A stretch of 64,000 nt of DNA, taken from assembly GCA_048213135.1 (NCBI GenBank), contig PS015296.1, forward strand, positions 1 to 64,000, given 5' to 3'. Position numbers and translations under genes: made by a program. Below, piece by piece: positions 161 through 64,000 of this stretch (position 1 is its first letter; the number at the start of each line of letters is the position of its first letter). Origin of the DNA: Reclinomonas americana ATCC 50394 (Eukaryota). Under the pieces are notes generated by a model, which did no database searches, was not told where the DNA came from, and was given only the letters and a program-made list of their open reading frames with translations.

Positions 161-396
161 TCATCCTTGTTTTATTGGTCGCTTTTGTTGCTGGCGAGCG
201 GCATTATCCTCGCGACGACACTTTTTGTAGGCCTCGGCCACGTCCTCACAAAACTCCATGTTCTTGCGACTCTGCGAGAGATGCGCATGTGAGTGAGTGT
301 GGCAGAGGAGTGTGCGTGTGTGTGGAAGAGGCGCGCAACAGAGCACTTGATGTAGGCCTGATAGAGCTCCTCGCACGGATCCGGCCTTTGCTCCAT
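161..396 (-). CDS. Twin CX9C mitochondrial intermembrane-space protein (COX23/CHCH-like), 2 exons
   Basis: Spliced product MEQRPDPC-EELYQAYIK-CS|SRKNMEFC-EDVAEAYKK-CRRED..; two CX9C motifs; intron GTTGCG(339)..CAG. Confidence 0.75.
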
Positions 397-909
397 GTTG
401 CAGTGAGAGAGTAAGCGGACTTTGCGCGGAATTTCCCGCGCTTATCACACAGTCACGCACGGAGGCGCACAGAGTGCCTCGCTCTCTGTCTCTCTCATGG
501 GCATTGAGCACAACTCGTGCTGCTACTTTTGCCACAAGCAGCCCAAGAGAGTTGCGACTGAGGAGAAGGGGAGGAGAAGGGGAGGAGAAGGGAAGGAGAA
601 GGGGAGGAGAAGGGGAGGAGAAGGGGAGGAGAAGGAGGGAGACTGTGAGTGAGTGAGTGAGTGAGTGAGTGTGTGTGTGAGAGAGAGAGAGAGAGTGTGT
701 GTGTGTGTGTNNNNNNNNNNNNNNNNNNNNNNNNNNNNNNNNNNNNNNNNNNNNNNNNNNNNNNNNNNNNNNNNNNNNNNNNNNNNNNNNNNNNNNNNNN
801 NNNNNNNNNNNNNNNNNNNNNNNNNNNNNNNNNNNNNNNNNNNNNNNNNNNNNNNNNNNNNNNNNNNNNNNNNNNNNNNNNNNNNNNNNNNNNNNNNNNN
901 NNNNNNNNN

Positions 910-10226: not shown

Positions 10227-12761
10227 TCAATCGATGATCATGGTGAACTGGCCACACATCTCCCGCAGTCGCCGCATCTCGCTCAGGGCCTCTGCGGCAG
10301 TCGGCCGCACGTCGCGAATAGACATGCACTTGAATCCCAACTCGATCATCGGAGCGCACAATCGTGGATGCCACTCTCCTGCCTCCACATCGGCCAACGA
10401 TCGCAGGTCGAGTACAGCTGGATTACGGGACCACTGAGACGACCATTGCTTCACGACGGAAATGTCCTTGCCGGTGACCAGCTGCACAAGCAGCACACCG
10501 ATGCCGTAGACATCACACTCCGGCCGTACTTCGCCGGTCTCCAACATCAGCGGGTCCAAGTAGTGATAAGTGCCAGCGGCGTGAGTGGAGACATGCGACT
10601 GCAGCACCGCACAGGTTCACGATAGTAAATGAGAGACATGAACAGTGCTCGTGACTTTGAAACAGCCCTGACCTTTCCCTGCTCCATCACACGCGACAGT
10701 CCAAAGTCACCAATGCGCGGCTCCAGCCGGTCCTCGAGTTCTTCGAGGAGAATGTTGGACGGCTTCAAGTCACGGTGAATAATGTTGTTCTGCAGTGGCG
10801 CTTGTCAGCACCATGCTGCGGCATCGACTGCGATCTATCCGAGTACGCGTACGCACCTCATGCAAGTACGCAACGCCGTCCACAATCCCAAGTCCGATGC
10901 ACACACGTTGAAGCACATTAAGAGGTCGTCTTCTCCGCTCTCCTTGCGGCAGAAGCACCTTCTCGAGATCCAGTCGACTGCGATCGACAAACAATTTGTT
11001 GTGAGACAGAACTCTTCCTGCAGTTCCGTTCACCGACCACCAGACATACCTCAGCGCTCGGTACACAAGGCACCTCCTTGTGTTCTCAGCATTGGAGTCT
11101 TCCACTGCATATCCGAGCAGAGGCACAAGGCGCGGGTGAGAGTGGCAACCGAGTGTGCGAACCTGGGCGTACGCAATCAGTAAACTGATTGCCGGTAAAC
11201 ATTCAGAGAGCACGAAACTTCGCTCTCATACGACGACAACGCCCACGGGGTGTCAATGTCGATCAACTTGACTGCCACGTGCTCCTCTCGCAGCAGACAA
11301 ATGTAGACGGCGCCCTGACCACCTTCGCCAACTTTGAATCGCTCATCAAACGACTCACTGGCCGCCACCACCTCGCTCCACTCGTAGTTTCGGATGCGAC
11401 CAGGGTCTTTGACGAAAGAGGTCAGCTGTCTCGGCAAGGAGGCACACGCGAGCAGTGAAAAAACGCACCAGCTACTGCCGTGGCAGCAAGCTGCCTACGC
11501 AACTCCGCCACCATCGACCTCTCTTCTGCAAGGCGGGCGTCCTTCTCGCTCACTTGCAGCACTAATTCAGCAACGTGCTGATGCAACTCCTTCATGGTTT
11601 GTTGATCATCGTTGACCTGTTTCTGAGTTGCATCCAAAAGTGCTCGCAGTCGAGTCTCACTTATCTTCGTCGCCGCAAGCATGCGCTGAAGCTCGAGAAC
11701 GCTCTCCTGACCCGCTTGTGCAAGCACCCGAGCATCTGCGAACCGAAACCACGCATGCATAAGGTTAGAGTACTCATCGAGAACCTCCACAGCGACGCAA
11801 ACAACTTACGCACCAAGGTCCCACTTGCGTACGCTCCTGTCTCGACTGGCAGAGAAAATTTGGCTTCCGTCAGGCGTCATTACAACAGAGTACACAGCTC
11901 CCTCGTGGCCGGCCAGCCGCTGCACCTCGCTGCCAGTGGAGCTGGAGCATACAAGCACCAGTTGGTCGTCACCCCCACTCACCACGTGCCTCCCGTCGGA
12001 TGTGAGCGCCAGTGACAGAACGGGACCTCGATGCCACTGCAACCGTAGCTGCTGCGTTCCCGTCACCAGCGACCACTTGATGACGGTGCCGCTGTCGGAG
12101 GCAGAAAACAGGAAGCGATTGTCGAAGGCGAACACTACGGCACGCACAGCGGCACCATGCTTGTCGAGTTTTCTGACTTTTTCGCCAGTGGCAAGCGACC
12201 ACACGCGCACCGTCTGGTCCTCGCTGCCGCTGGCGCCAATCTCGCCTTCGGCAGACACGGCGACAGATGTCACAGCACCGCCATGACTCGTGGATCGCCA
12301 CAGTTGCTCCCCGCTGCTCAGCGACCAAGCACGCACGCTCTTGTCGCGACTGCCACTGATCACCACGGTGCCGGCGGGAGACACGGCCAGCGAGAGCACG
12401 GCATCCGTGTGTCTCTCAAAGCGTTGCACCTCTCGGTTCTCCTCCAGCGACCACACGCGGATGGTCTTGTCGTCACCGCCGCTGACGAGCAGTCGGCTGT
12501 TGGGAGAGGCGGCGACACAGTGGATGGTGCGAGTGTGACCTCTGAAACAATGCTCCTCGGTCCGCGTGAACATGGACATCACACGAACAGTGTGGTCAGA
12601 GCGCCCGCTGGCGATGTGATGGCCGTCGGCGGTGGCGACGATCGAGGATGACACATGTGCTTGAAGGCTTGTTGTTGTGGTCGTGGCAGAGGCTGACTGC
12701 AGCGATGACAATGCGAGTGGGAGAGCGAAGATCACGTGCGCACAAGACTGCAATTTACCAT
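10227..12761 (-). CDS. WD40 propeller - coiled coil - RLK/Pelle(IRAK)-type protein kinase fusion, multi-exon
   Basis: ATG|GTAAAT first intron; 7 WD repeats; intron G|GTGCGT..CGCAG removes the in-frame TAA at 11806 and joins KWDLD-ARVLAQ..; kinase motifs GEGGQGAVY, VAVK, HRDLKPSNILL, DFG, GTYHYLDP, DVYGIGV. Confidence 0.8.
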
Positions 12762-13007: not shown

Positions 13008-16000
13008 TTACCACACTTGCTCTCCTTGCGCCTGCGGAGGGACAGGGACCGGCGCTCCCTCGCCCTGCTCATGATCCGGCTCTGCTGGTACTCGAACCGG
13101 GGATGCAGGTAATCGGTGCGCATCGTAAACATTGTCCATCTCAATATCAGCACCGACGTAGTTTTGACCTCGACCGCCAGCCTGACGGCGTGCGGCCGAA
13201 CGGCGCCGTCTACGAATCGCCAGCACCAGGAACAAAACAATCAGCGACAACACCGCAGCAGCAGCCAGTCCTATCAAAACCCACGCCCACACAGGAAGGC
13301 CAGAGCCGCCTGATGGACTGCCGTCGTCACCAGTTGTCGACACACGCAGGTTGGCCGACGGGATCGACTGGCCGAACGAGTTGATGGCGCGCACATTCAC
13401 CACGTACGGCGTGCCAGGCTGCAGGTTCGATTGAGTGAACGTGTAGTTGGCGCGCGACGACGACGACGTCGAGTCGGTGGCGTCCTTGTAGCCGAAGATC
13501 ACGTTGCTGCCGTTCTCCGGAATCGTCTGGATCTGGTAGCTGGTGATCAGACCGAGACCAGTGTACACCGGGGTCGAGAAGTTGACGGTGATCGAGGTGT
13601 TGGTGTTGGTGCCCTGAGTCGGGGCGGCCGGCGCAGCAGCCTGGCCCGTCTGGGTCAGAGTGCCCTGAGTCGGCATGCCAATGTTGTTGTTGGCGGTGCC
13701 CTGCGAGCCCTGGCCGAGGCCGACCGTGTTGCCACCGATCAGCACCATGCGGTAGCGCGACGACGGCTTGATGGTCTGGAACAGCTGCACGCAAGTGCCG
13801 GCAATGACCGGGTTGGTGCCGCTGCCGAGCACAGCAGTGTTCATGCCCAGGCCGTCAGCGGCAGCCGGGTTGCCAGACGACGCCAGGAAGCGGGTCGTCC
13901 ACTGCCAGTACACCAGGTAGTAGGTGGCGGCCGCAGTCGTGCCCGAGCCCACCGCAGTCCACGACACGCGGTACTCGTTGGCGGCGTAGAAGTCCAGCGA
14001 CGGGGTGCCAGCAGCCGGCACAATGCCAGTCGTGGTCACCGGCGACGCCTGGATGTAGATCGACAGCGAGTTGTTGCCCGTGCCAATCGAGTTGGTCGCG
14101 TTCAGGAAGAAGCGGTAGAAGTTGCCGTTCACCACCGTCACAGACGCCGTGGTGTCGGTGGCACCCACCGCCACCGCCGGGTTCGACGCAGTCGTGCCCG
14201 ACACACCAGTCAGAGCCTGGCCAGAGATGGCAGTCGACGCGCCAGTGGCAGTCGTCCACGTGAACGCAATCGCCGTGCCAGTGTTGCTGGTCACCGCAAA
14301 GTTGGTCTGGTCGTTCGGCACCTGGCCCGTCAGCACGTTGTTGTTGAGGCCGTTGCCGACAATGAAGTCACCAAAGGTGGCCTGAGTGGTCGACGTGCCA
14401 ATGCCGTTGATGCCGCGCACGTCGACAAAGTAGTTGGTGGCGTCAGTGAGGCCGCGGATGACAGCCTGCTGCACCGAGGTGGTGTTCTGGGTCAGCGTGC
14501 TGGCCGTAGCCGCGCGCCACGACACCTGCCACTGGTTCACGAAGCCCTGGCCGCCAGTCTCCTGCGGCTGTCCCCAGCTGAGCCAGATCGAGGTCGAACG
14601 CTTGAGCAGAATGTTCGACGACAGCGACAAGATGCCGCTCGGGCGCACCGGCGACGTGGCCGTGGTGATGGTGATGGCCGACGCAGACCAGGCAGTCTGG
14701 TAGCCGTTAAACGACGCCACGCCAATGCGGTACTTGGTGTTGGAGGTCAGGCCGTTCACCAGCAGCGACGAGGTGGTCGAGCCGAACGAGCCAATGATCT
14801 GGTTCACGAACGAGTCCGGCACAAAAGTGGTCGAGGTGACGTTGGTCAGGTTCTGCACCAGCATCTGCACGCCGACAAAGTTCGCGAAGCCGTCCGAGGT
14901 GGACAGCGAGTACTGCGTGCCCTGCACAGTCGACGGGGTCGACAGCGTGAAGGTGGCGTAGCCGGAGCCAGTCGTGCCAGCCGAGCCGCCAGTGGTCAGA
15001 GCCGGCAGCGGGTACGGGCGCACAATCGAGTTGGCAATCTGCGGCAGAGTGCCCGACTGAGCACCGTTCTGCGTCGAGGTCACACCAGAGTCCGAGCGGG
15101 TGTTGGTGGCCTGCACGGCGTAGGTGTACGACTTGCCCGGAATGGTCGGAAAGTTGAAGTTGGTGGTCAGCGTCGTCCACGTGTACGTGCGGTTGCAGTT
15201 GCTGGTGTTCTGCGTCACAANNNNNNNNNNNNNNNNNNNNNNNNNNNNNNNNNNNNNNNNNNNNNNNNNNNNNNNNNNNNNNNNNNNNNNNNNNNNNNNN
15301 NNNNNNNNNNNNNNNNNNNNNNNNNNNNNNNNNNNNNNNNNNNNNNNNNNNNNNNNNNNNNNNNNNNNNNNNNNNNNNNNNNNNNNNNNNNNNNNNNNNN
15401 NNNNNNNNNNNNNNNNNNNNNNNNNNNNNNNNNNNNNNNNNNNNNNNNNNNNNNNNNNNNNNNNNNNNNNNNNNNNNNNNNNNNNNNNNNNNNNNNNNNN
15501 NNNNNNNNNNNNNNNNNNNNNNNNNNNNNNNNNNNNNNNNNNNNNNNNNNNNNNNNNNNNNNNNNNNNNNNNNNNNNNNNNNNNNNNNNNNNNNNNNNNN
15601 NNNNNNNNNNNNNNNNNNNNNNNNNNNNNNNNNNNNNNNNNNNNNNNNNNNNNNNNNNNNNNNNNNNNNNNNNNNNNNNNNNNNNNNNNNNNNNNTGTAG
15701 CCGTTGATCGAGGTGCCACCAATGCCAATCGGCGACGCCCACGAGATGCTGGTGATGGTGTCCTGGTAGCAGTTGCCAGAGAAGCCCACACCGAGGGTAC
15801 CAGCCACAGCAGCGCAGCCGGCGCTCGAGTTGGTGCCCTGCGAGTTCGCAATACCAGCAGCCAGCGTCGGGGCGGCGGGGGCGATCGGAGCATCATCTGT
15901 GTGTTGGAGGAGAAGGGAGGCGGTGGTGGATTAGATACTGATATTCAAAAGAAGCAGATGGCTTCCCTTTCTCTCCCCCTATCCCCTCTCCTGTCCTCTT

Positions 16001-19000
16001 TCTTTCCCCTTTCCTGTCCCCACTTTTACGCAACTGGTGTTGTGAGTGGTCTGAGTAAGCGGTCCAGCAGCCGTGGCCGAGTTGGTCGACGTGGCAGTGG
16101 CGTACACCTGGTACGTGTACGACGTGTTGGCCGTCAGCGTCGTGTCGGCAGTGTAAGCGGCGGTCAGCGCCCAGCCAGCCGGCAGAGTCACCGTGCCCAC
16201 AGACACCGGGGTCGCGCTGCCCTGGCCGCGGAAAATCGTGAACACCGTCACGGCATTGGAGCCAAAGTTCTGCGGAATCGTCCACTGCAGGGAGATGTTG
16301 TTGAGGCCGTACTGCGTCACCACCAGGCTGGTCGGCGGGTTCGGCACCACGCCGCTGGCAGTCGGAGTGGTGAAGTTGATGGCAGTGCTGAACACGCACG
16401 TCACCGGGTTGGCGGCAGTGCCAGCCGGGTTGAAGGGCGACGTCGGGAAGGCAATCGAGAACTGGTTGCTGGCGCAGATCTGCAGGTTGACTGAGGTGCC
16501 AGCCGGCAGGCCAGTCACGTCAATGTAGTAGGTCGACAGGTTGTTGCTCCATGACGCCGCAGAACCGCTGCCGTTGGTGGCCGGGATGGAGCTGGCGTCA
16601 ATGGCGATGGCAGTGCCGGCAGTGGCCGCAGTCACCGACGAGGCGCTGGTGGTTGAGTACACCACACGGTAGGCGCTCACGTTCGGAGTCGGCGTCGTCA
16701 CGTTGCTCTGTGTGGCGCTCGAGGTGGCGGTGTTGGAGCCGCCGACGCTGATTGGGGTCGAGAAGTTGAGGCGCACGCCAGTCGAGAACAGGCGCGAGTA
16801 CGCCACACCAGTGGGCGCAGCCGGCACGGAGCCGTTGTTGTCGGTGGTGGCCTGGAGGGAGCCGGCCGCCGAGGCAGTGGTGTTGTTGTTCACGGTGAAC
16901 TTGGCCTTGACCGTGTACTGCGTGGCAGCCACAAAGTTGTTGGTGGTGCCGCTCACAGTGAAGCCAGTAATCTGCTGGTAGAAGCCAGAGGTGTACGAGA
17001 ACAGGCCGAAGAACGAGGTGGCGATGTTGCCGTTGCCAGTCGCGCCGGTGGTGATGGCAGGCTGGTCAGTGCTGGCGTTGGTCACCGTGTAGGCGGCCAT
17101 CGGCGTAGCGCCAGTGTCGCCAGTGCCAAAGGTGGCCGGGTAGTTGAAGGCGACGACAAACGATGTCGAAGTGACCTGGTCCACAGAGCCAGTGTACGGC
17201 GCCACTGTGTAGCCAGTCGGCGCCGCCGGGGCGCTCATGGCACCCTGCAGCGTCACCGTCACGGCGGTCGAGAAGTTAAGGTTGGCACCGTTGGTGCCAG
17301 GAGTGCCGTTGCCGTTGTTGTAGGCCACAGACACAGCGCAGCTGGTGCCAGTCAGGCCAGTGACCTTTACGAGCACGCGGTTGCGCGACGTGCCAGAGCT
17401 GCCGGCCGGCGCCGGGATGCTGAAGTCGGTCAGGTCGCCAATGGCGGTGACCACCGTCACTGCACCAGTGCCGCAGTCCGACTTGACGTACCACGTGGCA
17501 GCGCCAATCACACCCACATTAGCCGCCACACCCTCCCACTCCACCCACGACGACGTCGAGGTGATGTAGCGCAGAGTCGACGAAAGCGTCGGGGCCGCAG
17601 TCGACACCTTGGTGGCATCGGTGCCGCTGGTGGTCAGAGTACCGCTCCAGGCCGTGGCCGAGCGGTTGACCTGCGACTCAGTCCACACGTTGATCGTGTA
17701 CGACTGACCAAGGCTGGCGCTGACTGCGGCGAGCCCGACGATCGTGTACCCACGCCATGTGCCGGACGACACATTGACGGTGACGACTGGGGCTGGACCA
17801 AAGCCACCCATAAACGCGCGGTAGGCGGCGGCAGTGACGGCCAAGTTAGACGTCTGCTGCACAGTGAGCGACGTGTTGATGTCCTGGAAGGTGCTGGCAG
17901 TGGCACCAGGGGTCTGCGAGTTGAGAGCGCCCTGGCCGACAAGGTCGGTCGGCAGCTGCAGCCAGATGGTGGCCTGGGTGCTGCCAATGTAGTAGATGGC
18001 GTTGGTGCTGGCGGTGGCGACCGGAGGGCGAGCTGTTCGGAAGAGAGGCAAGGCGAAGAGATGGTGTGATTACCACTGGCGAGAGAGAGAGAGAGTGAGA
18101 GAGGACGGTGCGCAACTGGTGGCAGTCCAGAAATTAGAGCCGCCAGATGTCGGGGAGGCGGCGGCGGAAGAGTTGGTGGTGGCCGCGTTGGTGACGGAGA
18201 ACGAGACCTGTGGGAAGTATTGGCGGCCGGGGAGGAGGCCAGACAGGGTGACCTGCCAGCCGTCGAGGTGACCAGTGGCGGGCTGGTTGCTGTTGGCCGT
18301 GGTGGTGAGGCCCGAGGCGACAGCCGTACCGCGCACGTAAGCAGTAATGGCGGCAGTGAAGGCGTAGATGTTGGCAGCAGACGCAGCGCTGACAGTGGCC
18401 TGGTTGGCAACGTATTGCCCACCACCGGCGGTCATATTGACAACGAAGGTCAGCGAGGTGTCGGTGATGTCGATGACGGTGATCGAGTTGGCGGCGGGGA
18501 GAGCACCAACGTTACTAGCGGTGGTACCGAGTGAGGTAGCAGCGACGCTAACAGTGTTCACAGTGGCAACAAATGCAGCGCCGCCACCTACAACGCTGAG
18601 AGCAGCGGGAGTTGTGATAGTGACGGTGTCACTAATAGCGTAGCCAGATCCTTGCGCGTTGACGACAGCCGAAGCGACGCCAGTGGCGCTGACGGTGAGG
18701 TCCATGGTCAGTCCAGTGCCGCCACCGCTCGTGGAGGTGGCAACTGCAGTGTACGTAGACGCCACGGCGTAGCCTCCCATACCGGTGGCGGCAGGGGTGC
18801 AGGTGCCAGTAAGTGTGCCAGCGACCTGGCTCGTGATAGTACAGGTCGCTAGGTTGGCGCCGGGCGCCGGCAGTGTTGCGCTTCCACTGGTACAGACGCC
18901 GCCTGTCAACGTCAACGTGACGGCTTGCATATTGCCATAGCCAGTGCCGGCCGCATTAATCGTCGCCGCAATGAGATTGCCATTTGTTCCGATAGTGACA

Positions 19001-43066: not shown

Positions 43067-43089
43067 AAGGCGACAAACCTCCCATCGAT

Positions 43090-43714: not shown

Positions 43715-43749
43715 CTTCCGCTCTCGTTGTGTAACAGTGGTCGAGGGGT

Positions 43750-44093: not shown

Positions 44094-44124
44094 GTCCGGA
44101 TGCCCACCGTATTGGTTAGCAGCA

Positions 44125-45476
44125 TCACTGCTGAGGCGGTGCCAGCAAGCGGCGGCGCACACGGCGACGACGCTCGCCAACTCCAGGCTCCTGATCGTCC
44201 AGCAGGCAGGCCACATACTCGCGGGTGCGCTGCGACAGGCCCAACAGCTCATCGGGGATCCGGATCGACTCGCGATCAACGGCAGCCGGCGACGCCGCCG
44301 CCGCAGTCGCCACAGCCGAAGCGCCAGCACCGCCAGACGGAGAGGAGGGGTAATCGTCGTCGTCGTCCTCCTCCATGTCGACACGTCCGCGGCGACGCAC
44401 CGGGCGCTTCTTCGCACGCAGCATGAACGGCTCCGACACGACAACCAGCGTGAATCCGTCGGCGCCCGTGACCTGGAGATGATGGGCACAGTGAGCGAGT
44501 GAGGGAGAGAAAGTAGAGGATGCGTGCATCACTCACCACGAGCTGCAAGGTGAACGGCTGGCGTCGATGTTTGGTCGATTGAGTGACGAATTGCACCGTT
44601 GTGCGACCATCAAAGCCGGCCTGCGTCTGCCGCAGCTCAAAGCTCACGCCGTTGGGGTCAAGGGCACTCGCCACACTGCACACAAGGCACATGAGCACTA
44701 TGCAAAAGCTGTTGCTTAGCACAGTGACAACGAAACTGGCGACCGTGGCACAACAGCATCACGTCGACTTGCAGACTGCCCACCGCCATCATGGGCGCCA
44801 GCTCTCGCGGAGAGACGAGCACACGCAGGTCGTACTTGTACGGCGCCTGTCACACACACACTCGCGATGAGACGGCGACTGCTGCAGTGAAAAAAAGGGC
44901 ACAATAAGCAGCAGCACATACCGAGAACAAGTTGTCGTCCACCAGCGGCAGTCGCGGGCTATAGTGCACCTCGGTCTTCTTCGCCGGCTTGCACATCACG
45001 CGCACCGCAAAGTCATGATTGGGCGGCATCAACTGGAAGTCGCTGACTGCCGCCGCCGGTGCCGGTGCCGCGGCGGTGCTAGCAGGTGCAGGTGGTAGCG
45101 CTGGCAATGCCGGCGGCAAGAACGGCACGCCCCCATAGGGCATGAACGGCGGCGCCATGAGCGGTCCAGCAGCAGCACCAGGAGCAGCAGGGAAGTGCTG
45201 TGGCAGAGGCGGGAACACGGGAGGAGACGGAGGGGGAGGCGGTAGAGGAGCGGGCATGTCCATGGCCATAACGGCGTCGCCGTCGCTGCTGTCGTCTTTG
45301 TCGCTGTGGTCCATCAGGGGCGCCAGTTGCGCGGCAGAGGGCTCCACACGTGTGTGTGGCGGTGGCGGTGGTGGAGAGACGGGGGCGGAGGGAGGCAGCG
45401 ACGTGTCGTCATCATCGAGCTCGAGAAATTCGGCGACGGTGAAGCCGTCGTAGCCGACGCGAGACGGGCGAGACAT
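44125..45476 (-). CDS. Putative Ig-fold (CudA/STAT-like) transcription factor, paralog 1, 4 exons
   Basis: Acidic/Pro-rich N-terminus; domain PYKYDLRV..VDVMLLCHG..FDGRTTVQFVTQSTKHRRQPFTLQL..SEPFMLRAKK; basic NLS; family assignment is inference. Confidence 0.6.
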
Positions 45477-50271: not shown

Positions 50272-51699
50272 TCACTCCGCACTCGGGCCAACAATGCGAC
50301 GGCGCAGGCGGAGACGGCGCTCCACGCTCTCAGCGCTGGTGTCGGCCGGGTCCAGCAGCGCCAGCAAATCAGCGCGACGGTGCGCCGGCAGGCGTTGCAG
50401 CTCCTCCAGAATCTCCTCATCAATGTCGTCGGCCGGGGCCGGGAGGTCAGCTGCTGCCTCCTCAGCCTCCTCCATCTCGGCGCGAGTGCGGCGACGGCGA
50501 CGCGGTGCGGCCGGCGCGCCTTTCTTCGCATACAACGCGAACGGCTCCGACACGACGCGGAGCGGCATGCAGTTGGTGCCAGTGATCTGCACCGGAGGTG
50601 AGTACGCAAGCAAACCAGCGAGTGAGTACAATGAGAGAGAAGATGACGCACGTTCATCTCCATCACAAACGGCTGGTGGCCGTGCCTGGACGACTGCGTG
50701 TGGAACTGCAGGGTGGTGCGGCCACTGAAGCCGGTGCGGTTCCTGTTCAACACAAACCAGATTGGCGTGACCGCGCCCTCCACACTGCGGGAAAAAATGA
50801 GCTGGTGGTGCGCACTGCGGTAGCACGCGTGAACGGCAACAACGACGCAACGTGTCACGGCCAATCATCATCGCCACGTCCACTTGCAGGTGCGAGGCCG
50901 CCGCAAACGCCTCCTCGTCCATGACCGTCACTTCCACCAGCACGTCGTACCGGTACGGTTTCTGCAGAGGGAAGTGAGTGCGCGAGCGTGTCATGACATG
51001 CACCTGGTGGGCGCACATACGTACCGAGCACAGTCCCCAGTGGTAGCTGTCGCGCGGCAGCAGAAGCTCAAACGCCGTGTCCCTGAGCTTGGCCGACTTG
51101 ACAAACACGTCCACCGACGCCACTTGAGACGGCGGTCTCAGCTGCCAGTCAGTGGGCGCAGCCGGAGGCATCGTCGCCGGGGGGAAATTGACCGCGACGT
51201 CCGCAGGAGGCGCAGCGGCACTCGCAGGCGGAAGGGGCAATGTGAGGAGAGTGCAGCAGGTGGGCGCCACCGGTGCCTGCCACGTGCACAGCCACGGCCA
51301 GTCAGGCAGAGGAGCAGCAGCTGTTGCTGGTGGTGGTGGTGGTGGGGGTGGTGGCGGTGGCGGCGGAGGAGGAGGAGGTGGCGGGGCAGCAGCGCTCGCC
51401 ACGGACATGGTGCCAGCGACGCACACTGGCGGAGGAGGCATGGGTAGGGTCGGGAACAAGGTGAAGCTGGTCGGCACCGGCGCCGGCGTGTATGAGGCCT
51501 CCGTCTTCACGCCCACCGGAAGAAGAAGAACAGAGTCCATGCGCGCCGTCTCCATGGCCACATCCAGCGCAGCGCCAGTGGCGATCATCGGCATGAAGAG
51601 AGACTCGTGCACGTGCTGCGAGTGTGGGATCACACTCGGCGACGGTTCCTCAAAGCAAAAAGAGTACTTCTCCGCCTCCAAGGTCTCAAAGTCGTCCAT
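50272..51699 (-). CDS. Putative Ig-fold (CudA/STAT-like) transcription factor, paralog 2
   Basis: MDDFETL.. Pro-rich; KPYRYDVLV..LQVDV..FSGRTTLQFHTQSSRHGHQPFVMEM..SEPFALYAKK; PRRRRR NLS. Confidence 0.6.
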   Translation of the reverse strand: MDDFETLEAEKYSFCFEEPSPSVIPHSQHVHESLFMPMIATGAALDVAMETARMDSVLLLPVGVKTEASYTPAPVPTSFTLFPTLPMPPPPVCVAGTMSVASAAAPPPPPPPPPPPPPPPPPPPATAAAPLPDWPWLCTWQAPVAPTCCTLLTLPLPPASAAAPPADVAVNFPPATMPPAAPTDWQLRPPSQVASVDVFVKSAKLRDTAFELLLPRDSYHWGLCSVRMCAHQVHVMTRSRTHFPLQKPYRYDVLVEVTVMDEEAFAAASHLQVDVAMMIGRDTLRRCCRSRVLPQCAPPAHFFPQCGGRGHANLVCVEQEPHRLQWPHHPAVPHAVVQARPPAVCDGDERASSSLSLYSLAGLLAYSPPVQITGTNCMPLRVVSEPFALYAKKGAPAAPRRRRRTRAEMEEAEEAAADLPAPADDIDEEILEELQRLPAHRRADLLALLDPADTSAESVERRLRLRRRIVGPSAE

Positions 51700-52460: not shown

Positions 52461-53681
52461 TCACTGCTGCTGTTGTTGGGGTTGGTGCTGGTTCAGCTGG
52501 CGCCGCACGCGACGGCGATGCTCGACGGCTCCTGCGCGCTGATCGTCCAGCAAGCACGCCAAATACTCGCGCGTGCGCTGCGACAGGCCAAGAAGCTCGT
52601 CGGGGATCGCCTCAGAGGCGGCGGCATCGTTGCCGTCACTCTCCATGTCGGCGCGACCGCGGCGGCGAGACGAAGACGACGCGTCCTTCTGCGGCTTGGC
52701 ACGCAGCATGAACTGCTCCGAGTGCACGATCAGAGTCGAGCCGTTCGCGCTGGTGATCTGATAAACGACGGTGGTGAGGAATGGCGCAGAAGTCAGAGCG
52801 TCTTCATGGACACTCACCACCAGCTGGAGCGTAAACGGCTGTCGTCCGTGCTTGGTGGACTGCGTGATAAACTGCAGCGTGGTGCGCCCATCAAAGCCAG
52901 CCTGCGTCGGCCACAGCTCAAACTGCACGCCAGTGGGATCAAAGGCGTTGGCGACACTGAGAGAAGAGTGAGCAAGAGAAGAAAACGAAGAGAGAGCGCG
53001 GGAAAAGAGTTACGAAACTGCTGGCCATGACACAGCAATGACACATCGACGCGCATATTCTGCATCGAGTACGCCGTCATGGCGTCACGCGAGACTGTCA
53101 CGCGCATGTCGTACTTGTACGGAACCTACACGAAGGAAAAGTGAGAGAGAGTAAAGCGAGGCTAAGAATAGCATTTTCTTTCTCACCGACAACAGGTTGA
53201 TCCCGTCGGCCAGCGGCAACAGCGGGCTGAAGCAATCATCGCTCTTCTTGGCCGGCTTGCACAGCACACACACGCTGGCGGCTGCGGCTGAGGACACCAC
53301 CTGAAAGTCGCTGCGCTCTTGCTGCGCAGGCGGCGACAACGGCGGCGACAACGGCGGTGGAGAGATGGGAGGCAACACAGCGGGCATCATGGGCGGCAGA
53401 TCCGGGGGCGGCAACAAGAAGAAGCCGCCATGTTGATGATGATGATGGTGGACATGTCCAGTCGCGTCCACATCCCCACAGTGCGCCAGCACGGCGGCGG
53501 CGGGGTGCACAATGGATGGTGGCGGTGGAGGCGGTGGAGGAGGCGGGCTGGCGCCACCGATCGCCGCAACAACCGGGGGCTCGTGGAACGGCAAATCGCC
53601 GCCGACAAGAGGCACAGGCGCGTCGCCAAAGTCGGCAAAGTCGTCCGTGTCAAAGTGAGAGTACCACGTGCGTGGGATCAT
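52461..53681 (-). CDS. Putative Ig-fold (CudA/STAT-like) transcription factor, paralog 3, 4 exons
   Basis: MIPRTWYSHFDTDD.. Pro/His-rich; PYKYDMRV..VDVSLLCHG..FDGRTTLQFITQSTKHGRQPFTLQL..SEQFMLRAK; same intron positions as paralog 1. Confidence 0.6.
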
Positions 53682-54236: not shown

Positions 54237-54282
<46 letters not shown>

Positions 54283-55362
54283 TCTCTGTGCGCTCACCAC
54301 ATCGCACTGTGGGGTGACACACAGCTCTTTGAGGGACACGGTTTGTGTGTGCGCACTGTCGCTTTTACTCCCGACGGACTGCGCGTCGTTAGCGGGAGCG
54401 ACGACAAAACGATTCGAGTGTGGCCGTTGGCGAGTGGTAAGGAAGTGTGGCGACTGGACGTGTACGACTCGGTGTCGTCAATCGCTGTCACCGCCGACGG
54501 TCGGCACGTAGTCAGTGGCAGTGCTGATCACCTCGTTCGTATGTGGTCACTGTCTTCCGGGATGGAGGAGCAACGGTTGGCAAGCCACGCTGGCGCGGTG
54601 ACGTCGGTTGCCCTCTCCCCTGATGGTCAGCACGTAGTGAGTGGAAGTTGGGACGTGTGCTTGTGGTCACTAGCGACTGGGAAAGAGGTGCGACGATTCA
54701 ACGTAAAACAACGCCTGGGATGGATTGCGTCTGTTGCCGTCACCCCTGATGGGCAGCACGTTGTGAGCGGGGACGATAACGGAGCAGTGCGGGTGTGGTC
54801 GCTAGCGAGTGGCGAGCAGGTTCGACAGTTGACTGGCGTGTACGTTACTGTGCTCGACGCGCAGCACATTGTGAGCTATGGAGACCGGGATACGGCCATT
54901 CGAGTGGTCTCACTGGAGAGTGGCGAAGAGGTGCGACGCATGGAGGGACACACTGGTACAGTGCGCTCTGTAGCCGTCACACGCAGTGGTCAGCGCTTAG
55001 TGAGTGGGAGCGACGACAGGACAGTGCGACTGTGGTCTGTGGCGACTGGAACAGAACTGCAGCGGCTGAAGGGACACGTCGATGGAGTGTGGTCTGTCGC
55101 CGTCTCTCACGATGGTCTTCGCATTGCGAGTGCGAGTAAGGACACGACAATTCAAGTGTGGTCCGCACCGGGCGCCCTTGCTCAGCAGGAGCTGCAACGT
55201 GCGCGTTCAGCCATGCTGGCTGTACGGGAGATGCAGGGGAGCACAGAGGATGAACGGGATTCCCGCTGCCTGCCGGAGATGGTGTTGCGCTGTTTCATCG
55301 TCGAGGATGCTGAAGTTGTGCTCTATCGGTGTTGCCTTGATCCAGCTGGGATGTTTTGGTGA
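53964..55362 (+). CDS. WD40-repeat protein with family-specific C-terminal motif, paralog 3
   Basis: MSMK|LFEGH; WD repeats; tail PGALAQQELQRARSAMLAVREMQ..CLPEMVLRCFIVEDAEVVLYRCCLDPAGMFW. Confidence 0.88.
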
Positions 55363-55726: not shown

Positions 55727-57612
55727 TCACACCGTGGGAATCTGGAAACACAAGCCAAGCTCCCGCACTTTCTCGTATTCCTCGGCAAACGCCGTCTGCA
55801 AGTACCGATTCAGGTCGATCAGCATCCGTGCTCCGAGTCGGTACTGGCCGCCCTCACTGTTTGTATAGAGACAACGCAGTGTGAGCGCATGCACACTCGC
55901 TTGGAGAGCGCGCAAGAGAGAGCACACGCAACTGCTCCAACCACTTGTTGTCGGAGAGCTTGTTCAGCAGGAGTTGAGAGTTGCTGCGCGAGGAGGATCA
56001 GTCGACAGACGGAGTGGCGAGACAACTCAGAGGAACGTGCGCAGCGAATGACAACTCAGAAGAACAAGCACTCCAAGAAGAGAAGCAGAGAGAGAGAGCC
56101 ACAATCTGCGCTTCCCTCACAACGCAACGCTGGTGTCAAGTGCTGAATCACACCAGGCAGCCCCAGCAGCGCATTGTGGCCAATCCACGGCGGTCGCGTG
56201 CCAATGTCCTCCTCCTCCCACTTCTTCACCGACACCTCCACAATCTCACGAATCACCGCCAGCTCCTTGTCGGTGAATGCGGTGCCGAACTTGGCCGCTG
56301 CATCCGTCTCCTCGTTGACCACCGCGTAGTAGCGCTCGCTCGTACTCGGGTCGACAAACATCAGCAGATCCATGCGCATCCAGCGGAGGTTGTCGCGAAT
56401 GGTCTCCAGGATGGCGTCGCGGTCCCTGACGGCGTCTGCGGATGGGAGAGGGAGGAGAGGGGGGGGGGGAGGGGGAGGGAAGGAGGGAGAGGGAGGAAAG
56501 AATGAACAACCTGGTACGCAGCATTCAGCTTTTCCCCATTTCCCTCAACGATTGACAGACTGCGTGGGTGCTGTCCGCACGTCGCACTGCGTTCTCGCTC
56601 ATGCACCTGCCTCTCAGTCGTCTGCAATCCATTCTATGTCTCTCTCAGAAGACAGAATGCTTGTCTGTTCTCGCTCACTCGTCTGTCCCGCAGCATCATG
56701 CTGTGTCTCTTTCACAGACAGAGATGCATGTCTCTGTGATGCACCTGCTTCTCAGTTGTCCTTGCAACAGAAAGAGCGCGCTGATTGCTTGTCTCCGAGT
56801 CTCTCGCTCCTGCCTCTCAGTTGTCTGCTGTCATTCTCTGTCTCTCTCACAACAGAAAGAGAGTGCTCCTTGTTCAGCTTGCTTCTCAGCTGTCATCTTG
56901 CATTCTCTCTCAGCAAAAGCGTCGGCGCAGTGTGCATGTTCATGCGCCTGCTCAATCTCTCTCTCTTGCATTCTGTTGACTGCATGTCTCCTTGCCCTGT
57001 TGCTTCTGCGCCTGCTTCTCAGCTGTCTGCTTTCCATTCTCTGTCTATCTCAACAGGGAGATGCAAGTCTCACTGCATTCTCGCCTGCCTCTCTCTCAGT
57101 CCCTGTTGTCTGCCCCCAACTGATCAATGAGAAGCGCGTTTCACTCTTCTTCCCCGTCTCTCTCTCTCTCTTCTCTCTCTCTCTCTGCTCGTACGTACGA
57201 CTCCGNNNNNNNNNNNNNNNNNNNNNNNNNNNNNNNNNNNNNNNNNNNNNNNNNNNNNNNNNNNNNNNNNNNNNNNNNNNNNNNNNNNNNNNNNNNNNNN
57301 NNNNNNNNNNNNNNNNNNNNNNNNNNNNNNNNNNNNNNNNNNNNNNNNNNNNNNNNNNNNNNNNNNNNNNNNNNNNNNNNNNNNNNNNNNNNNNNNNNNN
57401 NNNNNNNNNNNNNNNNNNNNNNNNNNNNNNNNNNNNNNNNNNNNNNNNNNNNNNNNNNNNNNNNNNNNNNNNNNNNNNNNNNNNNNNNNNNNNNNNNNNN
57501 NNNNNNNNNNNNNCTACTCGTCTACTCTCGTCCTCCGTCCTCCTCCTCTCTCTCCGTTCCGTTCGTTCGTTCCGTCCCGTACCCTACCGTACTACTACTA
57601 GTAGACGCGTCG

Positions 57613-57680
<68 letters not shown>

Positions 57681-57846
57681 TTCCCTTTCCCTCCCCGCTC
57701 ACGCAACGAAGTGAAGGCAACCTCCCACTCTCATTCCACCTCTTTGTCGCATTCTCAATCAACACCACCACCTCCGCGCGCGTGACCACTCCCAACTTGC
57801 ACAGCGACACAAGCACATCGCGATGCGCTTGACACATTTGCGCCAT
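55727..57846 (-). CDS. NSE1: NSE1 (Smc5/6 complex subunit)-like protein; C-terminal RING not found; 3' end uncertain
   Basis: MAQMCQAHRDVLVSLCKLGVV..|..YYAVVNEETDAAAKFGTAFTDKELAVIREIVE..LTPA|NSQLLLNKLSDNKWLE|HEGGQYRLGARMLIDL matches the two NSE1 winged-helix domains. Confidence 0.75.
56570..57130. repeat. Degenerate tandem repeat inside NSE1 intron 1
   Basis: Recurring (c)ctgc.tctcag.tgtctgc..cattct.tgtctctctca.aa.aga blocks. Confidence 0.6.
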
Positions 57847-58228: not shown

Positions 58229-58816
58229 TCACATATTGGCTGCGGCCGCCACTCGCTCGTGCAACCTGAACGTTTCCCTCACAAACGGTCGCACGTCGCC
58301 TGCCCTCCGGTGGAAGTCGCGCATGTTTTTCAAGACGTCGAGCAGCTTGACCAGCTCCGAGTCCTCGTTGTCGTCGAACCACGACTCGATGGGGATGCCG
58401 TTGTCGAGTTGGAAGCCGAAGGCCTGTGGAGAGTTGTCCACAATCACCGCCGACGCCAGATCGCGACCGAGCACGTTGAGGTCCTTCAGGTAGTTGCCTT
58501 CGACGGGCACGCAGCTCTCACGGAAGACGCGGTATCTGCGGAGGGGAAGGGGGGATGAAGGGTGAGTCATCAAAATCGCACAAGTCGTGTTCAACAACAA
58601 TCGTTCACTGTGTCTCTCTCTTCACTCTGCATGACCTGCGCCACGCCCTCAATCATTCACTCTTTCAACATCTTGCTCTCACTAATACACACACAACGTT
58701 CTCAGTCGCTCTTCACTCCACTCTGCATGACTCGCCACGCTCTCAATCATTCAACATCTTGCTCTCTCTCTCTCTCTCCCTCTCCCTCTGTACTGCATCC
58801 TCCAATTTCGACGAGG

Positions 58817-58853
<37 letters not shown>

Positions 58854-61468
58854 GAGCAAATGCGGATCCACTGTGAAAGACCAACTCGCTCATAGTCACA
58901 CCGCATGACCCGCCACACTCTCAGTCCTTCTTTCAACCCCTAAACTCTCTCGTTCAACCACTCCCTCTCATTACTGCTCGCCCCAAATTCGACAGGCTAT
59001 TCAGAAAGAGAGAGCGAGAGAGTTGTGCTCTCCCTTTCTCTGCACATGTACCGCCAGGCTTCAATCACTCGGCTCACTATCTCACACACATTCTCCCCTC
59101 CCCCTGCCACTCCAACTCGGTCATCTTCACTCTGCATGATACGGCACACGTTCTCCATCATTCTGTCATCCCTTCCTCTCTCTGCCTCCAAGTTCACTGA
59201 CACAAACGAATTCTCTCCCTATCTCGCGAGTGCGACCACAGAGATAACAACAATCGAAAGAAACCCTTCCCCTTTTCCCCCTTCCCCCTCTCCCTTTCCC
59301 CTTTCCCCCTTTTCCCCCCGCGCAACTTGATCCACTTCTTCTCCGGGTCGAGAATGTTGAGCAGCTTGTCCGCATACACCCGTTGTGATGCCGTGAAAAC
59401 AATAATCTCAAACATCTTCGACACCACATCCAAAAAGTACTCCAAGTGTGGTCGCTTGCGCACATAAATGGTGTAGTCGACGCCGTTGAAGTGTACCGGG
59501 AAGGTCAAGTCGGCGTTGGGCAAGTACTCGACACTGCAGTGCACCAGTGTCTCGTCGAGATCGAGAATCAGTGAAATGTCGGCACTCTGTCGCGTCTTGC
59601 GTGGCAGACATGTTGTGCGAATGGTCTGCACTTGCTCGAGTGGCGGCAGCTGGTGAATGAACAGGAAGCTGTGCGTGCGTGCGTGTGTGTCAGCGACGGA
59701 GTATATAAAAAAGGCAGCGGTGGGAGGGGTGAGCGGACGCAACGGATCAAATTCGTCCTCCTCCGCGTCACTCTCCTCCTCGGCCTCGTCCACGTCCATG
59801 GTAGTCGAGTTGCGTCGCGCCGCCGCCGCCGCCGCCGCTGCCGCCTCGGCCTCAGCAGCCGCCTGCGCACGAGCCGCCGCCGCCGCATCCGATGCCGCCT
59901 GTGCCGCCGCNNNNNNNNNNNNNNNNNNNNNNNNNNNNNNNNNNNNNNNNNNNNNNNNNNNNNNNNNNNNNNNNNNNNNNNNNNNNNNNNNNNNNNNNNN
60001 NNNNNNNNNNNNNNNNNNNNNNNNNNNNNNNNNNNNNNNNNNNNNNNCGCAGCCGCCGCCGCCGCCGCACTCGCATGCTCGCCCGCATGATGCGGCACCA
60101 CATACGTCGGCGAGAACATAATCGCGGTGCGATCCGGCGCCGTCTCCTCCTCATCATGCATATACGTGTGCCCATGATGATACTCCGCCGCCGCCGTCGT
60201 CGTCGTGGACGATGACACCGCCTGTGCCGGGAACGCACGCGCCAACCGCAACGTATGCAGCGGCGAAGTCGGCACCACCGGCGGCGACACTGCTGGTGGC
60301 GGCGATGGAGGCGCCGCGGCACTCGGCTGCGATCCGCGTCGCTTACCCGCCGGCGACGATGTGATAAACCCGCCTACACTAGTGCCACCATTGCTGGGTG
60401 TTGCCGCACTGCTTCCACTCGCCGCGTGCGTGTACCCGCCGTGATGGTGGTAGTGATGGAGTGGTGGTCGCGTGGGAGTCGCTGGTGGATCCATGTCGGC
60501 CACGCTGATCGGTGCCACCATGGGCGCCGACGCCACCGCCGCTTGTGACGGTGGTGTGTGCATGCCTGCGCGTGAATGCCAAAGAGTGAGCACCAACACA
60601 GAGAGAGAGAGAGTCGGTGTGATGTGTGTGAGAGAGTATAAATTTGACACCAAGAATCCCAAACGGCACTTTGATCACCGACACACATCAACACATACAC
60701 GCGCGTGCTCTCTTTCTCATGTGTATGCGTCTGTGTGTGCGTGTGTGTGTATGTGTGTGTGAAAGTACACGCACCACTCTTGGCAGAGGCGGCGACTGGA
60801 GAGGCCAACGTGTTTCGACTCAACACACGAGTGGATCGCGCACCCGCAGAGTCAGTGTGACGTGTCGGAGTGTTGTTGTTGCTCAGCGCGGAGGCAGGAG
60901 GCGAGGTAGAGGACGGCGACGCGGAGAGCAGCAAATTGCCAAGCACCGGACAACGGGCGCCGGACGAGATGTCGACCACACACGACGACGCGCCCGCAGA
61001 AGCCGCCGCCGTCGCGTTCATTGCAGGCGAGCGGATGACTGTTGCTGCTGTTGCTGTTGTGCGAGGCTGCGGCTGCGCAAAGTGATGCACAGAGGCGACG
61101 GGCACTTGTCGCGCGGCCATGGGCGGCGATCGCACACTCGCCGCCGTTGCTGCTGCGTCGGTGAGTGAGGTGGACGAGGCCAGGCGCAGTGGAGGCGGCG
61201 GTGCTTGCTTGCGAGGGCGCATGGAGGCAGCGGCGGCGGCGGCAGAGGCGGCCGCCGATGTCGAAGTCGACGTTCCGGTCGCCGGGGACTTGAGTGCGGC
61301 GGTGGAGGCGGCTGCGGCGGCGGCGACTGCTGAGGCTCCCGGAGAGAGTGGAGAGGCTGTTGCGACTGTGGCTGCAGTGGTGGCAGGGCTGCTGGGGGAG
61401 GCGGGAGAGCGGCCGTGGCGGCAGCGCAGCACTGAGGGCAATGGGCGACGCGAGAACCCGGACGACAT
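58229..61468 (-). CDS. CTD small phosphatase-like (CTDSPL2/SCP4, FCP1-homology) protein
   Basis: [77 protein letters not shown]. Confidence 0.92.
58590..59200. repeat. Degenerate tandem repeat inside a phosphatase intron
   Basis: Recurring ctctgcatga...gccacgc.ctcaatca.tc blocks. Confidence 0.55.
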
Positions 61469-62008
61469 TGCTGCGTGGACTGTGTGAGCGTGCGTCCACC
61501 CAGCGAGACAAGTGTGTGTGTGTGGGAGAGGAGAAAAAAGTCCGTTTTCCGTTCGGTAAAACACACCTCTGGTTTTCTTGTTCGACAGCTCGTGTGGCGT
61601 GTGTGGATGGATACCGAGCGAGTTGTGCGCGCGTGTGCGTGTGTGCGTGAGAGAGAGGGTGGAGGGTGGCAGAGGCGAGGGGGTGAGTTGTGCGCAAGAG
61701 TTTTCCCTTGGCACGTGCTCAAGCACGCGTTTAAGACAATGTACGATTTGGGGTGCCAGATTTGTGAACCGGTTTTTTCATGCATTGACTTCGAGGTCGA
61801 TCTGATGGACTGGCTTTGGCGTCTGCAGCTTCCCTGGCCTGCTGCATCTCTCGCTCTCCACACTGCCTCTGCATCCATTGCTTGCTTCACTTTTTGTCGC
61901 GTTTGTCAATCCATTTGCTGTCCCGCTATTTTCAACTCACACACAGCCCACACACAGCGCTCTCGTTTTGTGTGCAAAGGAGACTGCATTCTTAGCATTT
62001 CGTCACTC

Positions 62009-64000
62009 ATGGCAAGTGGCAGTGGAGAGCACGATGAGTTGCGTTACTCGCCTCGCGCTCTCCCTCCTGTCCGCATGTGATTAATATTGACTTGTCGCAT
62101 GCAGTGCCTCATTGCGGGAGGAAGACTCTGGCCCCGTTTCCGCTCCTGCGGCCGGTGCAGCTGACGAAGGTGCGCATGATCTCCTCACTTCTTCTTCTTG
62201 TTGTTGTTCATTCTTGTTTCTTGTTGTCCTCTTCCTCCTGCTTCCTCTTCTTCTTCTTGCTGTTGTTCTTGTTGTCCACCTCCTCCTGCTGCTTCTTCTT
62301 CTTCTTCTTCTCGTTCTCCTCCTCTTTTTCTTCCTCCTTGTCCTCCTCCTCCTCCCCGTCTTCCTCCTCCTCCTCCTCCTCCTCCTCTTCCTTCTCCCTC
62401 TCCCTCACCTTTTCCCTCTTCTCCTTCCCCCTTCACAGCACCGCTCATCGCACGCACTGTCAAGCCGGTGACCGCCTTCCGCTTCCCGAGTCGGCGTGCA
62501 CTGGCGTCGACTCTGGCCAGCCGCATCGCCGATGCCGTGGAAGGCTTGTCACCTCTCTCTCTTTCTCTCTTCTCCTTTGCCGTTGCTCACTTTTTGGTCC
62601 ACAGCACACCGCCCCATCATCGTGATGCTCACGGGCGACGGAGGCGCCGGCAAGTCGTTCCTGGCCGAGCTGCTGGTGACCGAGTTGCAAGCTACGGGTC
62701 GGTGGAATGGTTCCGCTGTCGCCGCAGAGATGCGTGGCCACATTGGCGAGGTGGAGGAGCACGTCAAGGTGACTCCACTCTTTCTCTGATAATGACTCTT
62801 GTCCAGTCCCTTCTCTCTCACTCACTCTCTCTGTTTGGGCAGCCGGAGAACGCACTGGGCGACTTTCTGCGTGCCTTTGTGGTGGCACAGATGCGGGTGG
62901 ACGAAGACAAAGGCCGCCGAATGTCCAATCAAGTGGAGGCCCTGCTGGCGAGTGAGCAGCTGGCGCCTGCACAGCGTCTCCTGCGCCAGCTGATGCACGC
63001 GTCGACGGGGGTGATGGTGCTCGACAATGTCGGTTCGGCGGCGCAAGTGAGCGAGGTGGTGTGCTGCTCGGCTGGTGAGTCGAGCATCTCCTTCCTTCCC
63101 ACTCGCCACGTCTCTCGCTCACTCCACTCCTGCAGATGATCGAGAGGGCGGCAGTGCATTCGTGGCGCCCATCGTGGTGGTGACCAGTCGGCACGGACGA
63201 GTGGCGGATGAGGTGCGCGACGCCATGCTGCACGAGGCAGTGGTGGAGTGTGTGCAAATGGAGAGTGTGGAGAACGACGATATTGTGCAACTGGTGGAGG
63301 AGCGCTTGCGTGAAACAGTGTCGGAGGACGTGCGACGCCGGCTGGTGGAGGCACTCGAGAGTGGACAACAGCTCAACAGCGCCTTGCGTGTCAGTGCCTG
63401 TGTAGGGTGAGTCGGGAGCGCACACACGCTTGTTGACCGCTCTATCTCCTGATCCCGCTCACCTCCTCCTTTTGCATGACACAGCTGGCTCCTGTCGCAG
63501 TCGGCGGCACAATTGGAGCGAGTGCAGCTGGAGGAGGTGCTGAGTGGCATTGGTGGCGACGCGCTGTCGCAGCTGCTCGAGCGCAACATCATGTCGCAGA
63601 CGCCGGCCGCTCGCCGCATGCTGCTGCTGATCACGGCGTGCAAGGAATTCGGCTTGCCGATGACACGGGCGCTCGCACGAGTGGCCGTCAGTGTGCTGCG
63701 CGAGATTCCAGAGCTGACGGTGGAGGTGGATGAGGTGGGTGGTGGTGCAGCAGAGGCGCATGCATATGCGGCGGAGGCCGGCCATCTGGTGGAACTGAGC
63801 CAGTGCGTTCGACTACTGCGACTGCACGAGCTGGCGCTGGATAGGCGACTCCGCGCACCCGACTTGGTGGGCGAGCGACGGCAGTTTGACGAGATGGACG
63901 AGGAGGAGGAGCAACGAGTTCGCGCACGGCGTGCCGAGTTGACGAGCGGAGGAGGAGGCGGAGACGCCAGTGTGGATCACGTGCTCGAGGGTCTGTGCTT
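62009..64000 (+). CDS. STAND-class (NB-ARC/NACHT-like) P-loop NTPase, multi-exon, runs off the window
   Basis: Walker A IIVMLTGDGGAGKSFLA; Walker B VMVLDNV; sensor-1 IVVVTSR; GxP-like FGLPM. Confidence 0.7.

Follow-up and report, generated by a model that had tools for sequence, protein, structure and literature searches.

Pairing of U1 small nuclear RNA (snRNA) with the 5' splice site in a register shifted by one base has so far been described only as a rare exception at a few human splice sites; Roca and Krainer are said to have counted only some dozens of them, of the GUUAAGU type. Shifted and bulged U1 registers are both established in human (Tan et al. 2016, PMC4856993; a 2022 review), and according to Tan et al. 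the validated non-canonical registers together account for 1.5% of 201,541 5' splice sites, with 68 predicted sites, or 54 after curation, in the bulge +2/+3 register. Here we analyzed a 64-kb stretch of DNA from Reclinomonas americana ATCC 50394 (GenBank assembly GCA_048213135.1, contig PS015296.1, positions 1 to 64,000 of the forward strand; hereafter the window) and found that about 30 of the ~85-118 introns predicted in it, about a third, use donors of the type H/GTTG(C)G, far beyond what chance would give (the slash marks the predicted cut; H is A, C or T). Throughout, GTT..G-type donors are referred to as class 2 and the remaining GT donors, for example G/GUNNGU, as ordinary.

A trade-off between exon and intron pairing is also known: 5' splice sites without G at -1, as Carmel and colleagues among others reportedly found, have stronger positions +3 to +6. 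Class-2 donors are similar in that their form varies with the last exon base and a lost pair would be offset elsewhere. In the known trade-off, however, positions +3 to +6 improve within the same register, whereas in class 2 the whole word moves by one base (U+3, G+6). Human shifted-register sites likewise begin with GUU; in both, the first intron G would replace the last exon G, the U1 pairs would move one position and the cut would still fall before the GU, here by prediction from the sequence. Those sites are a tiny minority and reportedly carry AAG, whereas the class described here makes up roughly a third of the window's introns, prefers GCG and goes with exons that do not end in G. In the human bulge +2/+3 sites, as in class 2, an extra U follows the GU and a stretch complementary to U1 comes next (Roca et al. 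2012; Tan et al. 2016), but that register keeps exon-side pairing and a G at -1, which is found at 0/29 class-2 sites. Among the literature matches listed, which are no proof of absence, a GTTGCG or GUUGCG donor class is reported from no organism, the hexamer turning up there in primers and unrelated uses; nor did any describe a shifted register in protists, the matches on that subject being human, yeast or tunicate work.

Identification of class-2 donors

Gene models were built with a home-made dynamic-programming gene finder, its coding model seeded with seven Pfam-confirmed open reading frames (ORFs) and turned into a 3-periodic Markov model by later retraining. Five runs were made in all: three blind runs (res0, res1 and res2), in which a donor had only to be GT and an acceptor only AG, a YTVAY word and a CAG each adding to the acceptor's score, and two runs with a donor model. 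An intron-content model produced spurious long introns in CT-rich spacers, and the run that included it was therefore used only as a third vote.

An earlier sequence-only reading of the window had listed 22 GTTGCG donors and five analogues (GTTGAG at 23938, GTTGTG at 35087, and GTTTCG at 11218, 44736 and 53018), all after exons ending in A, C or T. Coordinates and strands proved correct, and the preceding base was G in 0/27 cases. At least one blind run recovered 19/27 of these sites and any of the five runs 23/27, while three class-2 members beyond that list were added by the finder, at 38389 (GTTGAG), 39728 (GTTGCG) and 50851 (GTTGCG). The further claim that such donors form a major intron class is borne out, with about 30 introns in 64 kb.

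As a word, the GTTGCG hexamer is not over-represented in the window: both strands together hold 72 copies, compared to 59.5±6.8 in dinucleotide-preserving shuffles, 7/100 of which reach 72. Among blind donors it is nonetheless the commonest hexamer, from 8/112 introns in the crudest run to 16/118 in the best one. When only genes scoring at least 15 are considered, GTTGCG accounts for 16/105 blind donors versus 72/8298 GT dinucleotides in the window, a ~17-fold enrichment (binomial p=1.6e-15). Genic copies also lie predominantly on the sense strand (51/67, p=2e-5), an excess that vanishes when donors are removed (24 versus 16, p=0.27) and is therefore wholly due to them. A strict frame test requiring 20 open codons on each side, which is too strict for short exons, was passed among 26 GTTGCG sites only by 59743 and by an unlikely pairing at 39493.

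Donor form and the last exon base

Donor class depends strongly on the last base of the exon, as the sequence-only reading had proposed. The blind run and both donor-model runs agree exactly on 45 introns; in these, GTT..G donors follow 15/20 exons that do not end in G compared to 1/25 that do (Fisher p=6e-7), and the lone exception, gtg/GTTTTG, is doubtful. After two corrections made by homology or paralogy, the counts become 16/19 and 1/26 (p=2e-8); the tendency persists in the noisier blind set (n = 70), with 15/41 and 1/29 (p=0.001).

Base counts on the two sides of the cut differ between the classes. Ordinary donors (n = 30) have G at -1 in 28 cases, A19 C6 G2 T3 at -2, G17 A8 T4 C1 at +3 and G at +5 in 24, with A10 C11 G1 T8 at +4, so the earlier statement that exons ending in G mostly use G/GTGCG was overstated. 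Class-2 donors (n = 29) have A15 C6 G0 T8 at -1 and C at -2 in 14 cases, followed by an invariant GTT, G26 T3 at +4, C26 A2 T1 at +5, G at +6 in all 29 and T at +7 in 24; the donor word is GTTGCG at 24/29 sites. Position -1 of class 2 is indistinguishable from ordinary -2 (p=0.19) and unlike ordinary -1 (p=3e-11), while class-2 -2 differs from ordinary -2 (p=0.008). On the intron side, the invariant U+3 and G+6 (29/29) resemble ordinary +2 and, for the most part, +5. Comparing the class-2 consensus CA/GUUGCGU with the ordinary [A/C]AG/GUNNGU, the CAG/GU portion is displaced by one base.

The two classes also differ in phase, with ordinary donors at 17/8/1 for phases 0/1/2 and class-2 donors at 8/8/6 (5/27 not assigned). 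Ordinary donors thus lie mostly in phase 0, where G can be freely chosen at the third codon position, and the phases fit a coding constraint.

Junctions fixed by homology

Five predicted class-2 junctions, at 30478, 29873, 32046, 59326 and 35087, are fixed by homolog alignment or by Pfam coordinates. The gene for PSMB6 (proteasome beta-6 subunit), identified via homologs, contributes two of them, and its blind model is gap-free across all six junctions against 10 of the 120 homologs fetched. In agreement with the sequence-only reading, the longer of the two introns (30196..30478, strand -; gga/GTTGCG, 283 nucleotides (nt), called in blind run res2) falls directly before the catalytic Thr1, giving HSMG/TSIMAV; the other (29811..29873, -; caa/GTTGCG, 63 nt, blind runs) gives SMHK/MELREEP. 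For the leucyl aminopeptidase (LAP) gene, the same kind of alignment, again gap-free against 10/120 homologs, places the cut of a 60-nt intron (32046..32105, +; gca/GTTGCG, donor-model runs) at LVARAAA/NERADVATP, as had been claimed. Both proteins are distant from their matches in a 5.8-billion-protein collection, with best identities of 51-56% for PSMB6 and 61% for LAP, and the window's own proteins are absent among these matches.

Pfam profiles continue across the other two junctions. In a NIF/FCP1-like phosphatase gene, a 791-nt intron (58536..59326, -; caa/GTTGCG, blind run res2) separates NIF profile positions 2-84, in the preceding exon, from positions 82-155, which begin at the predicted acceptor. 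The RRM_1 profile in an RRM protein runs from position 4 to 36 up to the donor of a 128-nt intron (34960..35087, -; gca/GTTGTG, blind runs) and from 37 to 70 from its acceptor. By contrast, the junction FDP/FLFI at 59743, which had been presented as fixed by conservation, is not: it lies at about ORF residue 56 and the NIF domain starts at residue 113.

Paralogy points to three more class-2 positions. Three diverged copies of one domain are predicted, by reading of the gene models, to share an intron position with GTTTCG at 44736 (44676..44736, -; cca, 61 nt, run res4), GTTTCG at 53018 (52957..53018, -; gca, 62 nt, blind runs res0 and res1) and GTTGCG at 50851 (50785..50851, -; cac, 67 nt, newly added in three runs). 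The extra exon piece LLCHGR of the 44736 model is also present in the paralog at 53018, as read from the ORFs. The two adjacent genes (42660-45476 and 50272-53681, both -) share this repeated domain, of which there are three copies, all with the intron at the same position; its motif is ..PYKYD.RV..VD.. / VA.A.DP.GV.FEL..TQAGFDGRTT.QF.TQSTKH.RQPF..

Homology also reveals exceptions. Two homology-fixed ordinary donors of PSMB6, at 29758 and 30128 (-), read cag/GTAACG and cag/GTACAC and both lack G at +5; the first has G at +6 despite its G-ending exon. The dependence on the last exon base thus falls short of a law, although the tendency is strong. In LAP, a donor placed by the finder at 32275 was rejected, as it adds three residues relative to homologs; the true one is cag/GTGCGG at 32256, giving VGQ/AATVAPRIV. 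Finally, two sense copies of GTTGCG following C or A are, by a homology-type reading, exonic and unused: one at 10874 (-), inside the kinase segment ..GVAYLHE with a G/GTGCGT donor 18 nt downstream, and one at 32330 (+), inside LAP segment ..AATVAPRIV. The hexamer alone is therefore insufficient for splicing.

Length, 3' signals and interiors of class-2 introns

Apart from the donor, class-2 introns appear from their sequences to be ordinary short GT-AG introns. Median lengths are 68 nt for class 2 and 65 nt for ordinary introns, and base composition is alike. Typically 55-140 nt downstream of the listed donors there is a CTCAC- or CTGAC-like word together with CAG or TAG, and the 3' end is CAG in 24/27 class-2 introns (TAG in 3) and 24/26 ordinary ones. 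A YTVAY word occurs in the last 50 nt of 25/27 class-2 introns with a set acceptor; the class-2 words (CTCAC, CTCAT and CTGAC) are as in ordinary introns and CTCAC is the commonest in both classes, although this likeness of 3' signals is partly built in because the ordinary set was pre-filtered for a branch-like word. As expected of U2-type GT-AG introns, class-2 introns have GT, AG and a branch-like word and restore the reading frame in gene models. U12-type introns are characterized by RTATCCTT at the start and a branch resembling TCCTTAAC shortly before the 3' end; RTATCCTT has 0 matches in the window, with 0.6 expected. Interiors of class-2 introns have a mean local alignment score of 9.1 among themselves, compared to 8.7 between classes and 8.6 within the ordinary class.

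Pairing with U1 and alternative explanations

The best-supported reading of class-2 donors is shifted-register pairing, in which we place moderate confidence. Under this reading, two donor forms would share one snRNA-binding word, G-[G/U]-U-N-N-G-U. Where the exon can end in G, the word would begin at the last exon base and give the ordinary form G/GUNNGU; where the exon ends in A, C or U, it would begin at the first intron base and give H/GUUGCGU. The same U1 nucleotides would then pair one base deeper into the intron, which is the register described for rare human sites, and cleavage would still take place before the sole GU, at a later step. The pairing register and the participating snRNAs are what we infer from the donor sequences. 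These carry the signature of a shifted register (G+1, U+3, G+6 and U+7), with G+1, U+2, U+3 and G+6 at 29/29 sites and U+7 at 24/29. Exon-side preferences, displaced by one base as a shifted register predicts, lend indirect support.

The standard U1 5' end is AUACUUACCUG. Class-2 donors form on average 6.4 pairs in the shifted register versus 4.0 in the canonical one, and the shifted register is more stable at 24/29 class-2 sites and at 0/30 ordinary ones, in a calculation with the human-type U1 5' end given by Tan et al. (2016), from which that of the host may differ.

Several observations weigh against this reading. The best duplex with human-type U1 averages -1.0 kcal/mol for class 2 compared to -6.9 for ordinary donors, so class-2 pairing is predicted to be weak in any register, which is odd because the class holds the commonest donor. 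C is found at class-2 +5 in 26/29 cases versus 11/30 at ordinary +4 (p=5e-4), an excess that a one-word shift does not explain and that counts against the plain form of the proposal, the same motif with another cut. G is already rare before non-donor GTTGCG in the window (8/45), so that its absence at 0/27 donors is, taken alone, of modest significance (p=0.02). The gene models come from a finder trained on the same window, from sequence alone, the class-2 list rests partly on the choice of sites in the sequence-only reading, and the ordinary set carries the pre-filtering noted above. In addition, the finder missed four of the 27 sites in every run: 339, because its gene is cut by the window edge; 57707, because its acceptor is lost in an N gap (57206-57513); and 40742 and 59743, because their introns, at 69 and 75 nt, are stop-free multiples of three and offer no frame argument.

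The excess of C at +5 leads to the main alternative, possible but doubtful, in which U1 has an altered 5' end, or exists in a second species, and matches GUUGCGU well instead of merely tolerating a shift. Such a U1 would place G opposite the C at +5, C opposite the G at +4 and perhaps A or G opposite the U at +2; the lineage may, on this tentative account, have rewired its 5' splice-site recognition (U1 G5, C6 and possibly a purine at 8), with two donor codes chosen by whether the exon ends in G. It overlaps partly with the shifted-register reading, as the register relative to the cut would still be one base off. When 64 variants at U1 positions 5, 6 and 8 were ranked by mean duplex energy over 59 donors, the human type came 33rd and G5 C6 variants 1st to 3rd, the one that keeps C8 reaching -8.5 kcal/mol for ordinary and -6.4 kcal/mol for class-2 donors. 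C faces U1 position 5 in 26/29 class-2 donors; so it does in the two ordinary donors that come after a non-G base in the consensus set (aac/GTGCGT and act/GTACGC), the direction expected at weaker sites if a lost pair were offset by pairing with a G. We regard the ranking as a lead and no proof, since the energies take no account of pseudouridines and a consensus donor can depart from perfect complementarity to U1, as yeast GUAUGU does; this last point counts against a changed U1, as does the 5' end of U1 being, to our knowledge, nearly invariant across eukaryotes. Ordinary +4 is moreover A about as often as C (10 and 11 of 30), consistent with U or pseudouridine at position 5.

The remaining alternatives carry little weight. 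A bulged register, in which G+1 and U+2 pair normally, one U of +2/+3 bulges and GCGU pairs with U1 positions 6 to 3, is permitted by the sequence GUU-GNGU and is among the registers listed by Tan et al. (2016, PMC4856993), but the last exon base would then face U1 C9 and should be G, as it is at 28/30 ordinary and 0/29 class-2 sites, and the displaced exon side makes this register improbable. Still less probable is an artefact of gene modelling, with true donors elsewhere and GTTGCG merely a frequent word near exon ends: the reading of junctions from sequence, the finder's error at 32275 (true donor 32256) and the unused exonic sense copies at 10874 and 32330 would be in keeping with it, and five junctions fixed by alignment or profile, the ~17-fold blind enrichment and a sense-strand excess that comes wholly from donors argue against it. 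The uniform donor word (GTTGCG 24/29, T+7 24/29) could also suggest a recently spread, introner-like family with a fixed 5' end or a separate class resembling that of the minor spliceosome, to which we give scarcely any credence. Interiors are no more alike within class 2 than elsewhere (9.1 versus 8.6 and 8.7), lengths, branch-like words and 3' ends match those of ordinary introns, and three diverged paralogous domains share, by reading, one intron place with GTTTCG, GTTTCG and GTTGCG; as for a minor class, RTATCCTT has 0 matches in the window and branch words are as in ordinary introns.

If shifted-register pairing is correct, such a genome would show that recognition of 5' splice sites can come to use a second register routinely in evolution, under a simple rule set by the last exon base, and would offer a natural system for separating the U1-binding site from the cut position. 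For annotation, gene finders with ordinary donor models will misplace or miss class-2 introns, as our own models did at several loci, and this genome and those of its relatives therefore need a two-register donor model.

Catalogue of the other class-2 introns

The remaining predicted class-2 introns are given here in order of position; the donor is GTTGCG unless stated. At the start of the window, a 68-nt intron (272..339, -; tct), with its acceptor set by reading and never called by the finder, would join two Cx9C-like halves. The kinase gene contains a 56-nt intron with a GTTTCG donor (11163..11218, -; gaa, blind run res1). By manual reading its junction is ..SSYESE/VRTLGCHSHPRLVPLLGY, and we take VRTLGCHSHPRLVPLLGY to be a kinase-like motif; the same reading of the gene gives gag/GTATGT at 11049 and gag/GTGCGT at 10856 in addition to gaa/GTTTCG at 11218.

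A giant gene (13015-21272, -), described earlier as FN3-like, encodes a Thr/Ser/Ala/Gly-rich repeat protein with exons of ~2 kb and biased composition. Five introns are predicted along this stretch: 138 nt in the repeat protein (15897..16034, -; cca, blind runs), 84 nt linking two ~2 kb open frames (18033..18116, -; cca, all five runs), 82 nt (20221..20302, -; act, blind run res2), 76 nt (20786..20861, -; gct, all five runs) and 60 nt (20985..21044, -; aca, all five runs). Four follow between 23 and 25 kb. An intron of 80 or 89 nt (23388..23467, -; ctt) was found in all five runs, its acceptor varying between them; two, of 74 nt (23617..23690, -; agc) and 61 nt with a GTTGAG donor (23878..23938, -; act), were called in blind runs res1 and res2; and one of 62 nt (24024..24085, -; cat) came up in a single run, the one that combined donor and intron-content models. 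On the opposite strand, blind run res2 called a 72-nt intron (26398..26469, +; agc), and res0 and res1 called one of 65 nt (26984..27048, +; aat), for which res2 took a donor/acceptor pair 19 nt away.

Two of the newly added introns, identical in the blind and both donor-model runs, are an 83-nt intron of the UCH gene with a GTTGAG donor (38307..38389, -; gaa) and a 65-nt intron at 39728..39792 (+; tct). A putative 69-nt intron (40742..40810, +; tta), in frame and stop-free, was set by its signals only and never called; the exon around it has 0 homologs among 1.84 billion representatives. Directly downstream, a 62-nt intron (41015..41076, +; tga) was found in all five runs. Toward the other end of the window, the Nse1-like gene has a 76-nt intron (55857..55932, -; gca) called in blind run res1 only, with a junction that reads DNKWLEH/EGGQYRLG; the Pfam SMC_Nse1 match is to the neighboring exon. 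The acceptor of a further donor (56123..56128, -; agc) is not settled, as blind run res2 pairs it with the acceptor at 55857 and skips the exon between them. A putative donor at 57702..57707 (-; ttc) was recognized by its hexamer only, its acceptor falling in the N gap at 57206-57513.

A second putative in-frame, stop-free intron, of 75 nt (59669..59743, -; tcc), was proposed from its signals and flanking open frames and never called. Retention of 40742-40810 or 59669-59743 would add 23 or 25 residues and leave the protein unbroken, and being in frame and stop-free, neither intron can be confirmed by frame arguments. The last member, of 67 nt (62038..62104, +; tga), was found in run res4 only. 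Candidate donors at 551, 11503, 31380 and 36516 were not counted, their acceptors being poor or ambiguous.

Gene content of the window

The window is eukaryotic nuclear DNA with a G+C content of ~0.58 and seven N gaps, and its genes are densely packed on both strands. A search with Rfam at gathering thresholds found no RNA families in the 64 kb, and a search for RNA runs covering 26001-36000 listed none. Pfam confirmed a UCH hydrolase, four WD40 arrays, LAP, a NIF-type phosphatase, an RRM protein and an Nse1-like protein. When a PSMB6 exon was used as the query for a metagenome scan, 19 loci were found, none exceeding 68% identity in short pieces or 63% across the exon; identities this low mean that these loci are not close relatives. 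Long GA/CT-rich low-complexity tracts and microsatellites occur at 2300-3500, 41600-42000, 57500-57700 and 59200-59320, in spacers and long introns, and several adjoin assembly gaps. The four WD40 arrays, located at 11809-12816 (-), 47139-49716 (+) and 53974-55359 (+), are long, with Pfam E-values from 1e-52 to 1e-69. One of them lies directly upstream of the kinase-like exons on the same strand, which suggests a WD40-kinase gene.

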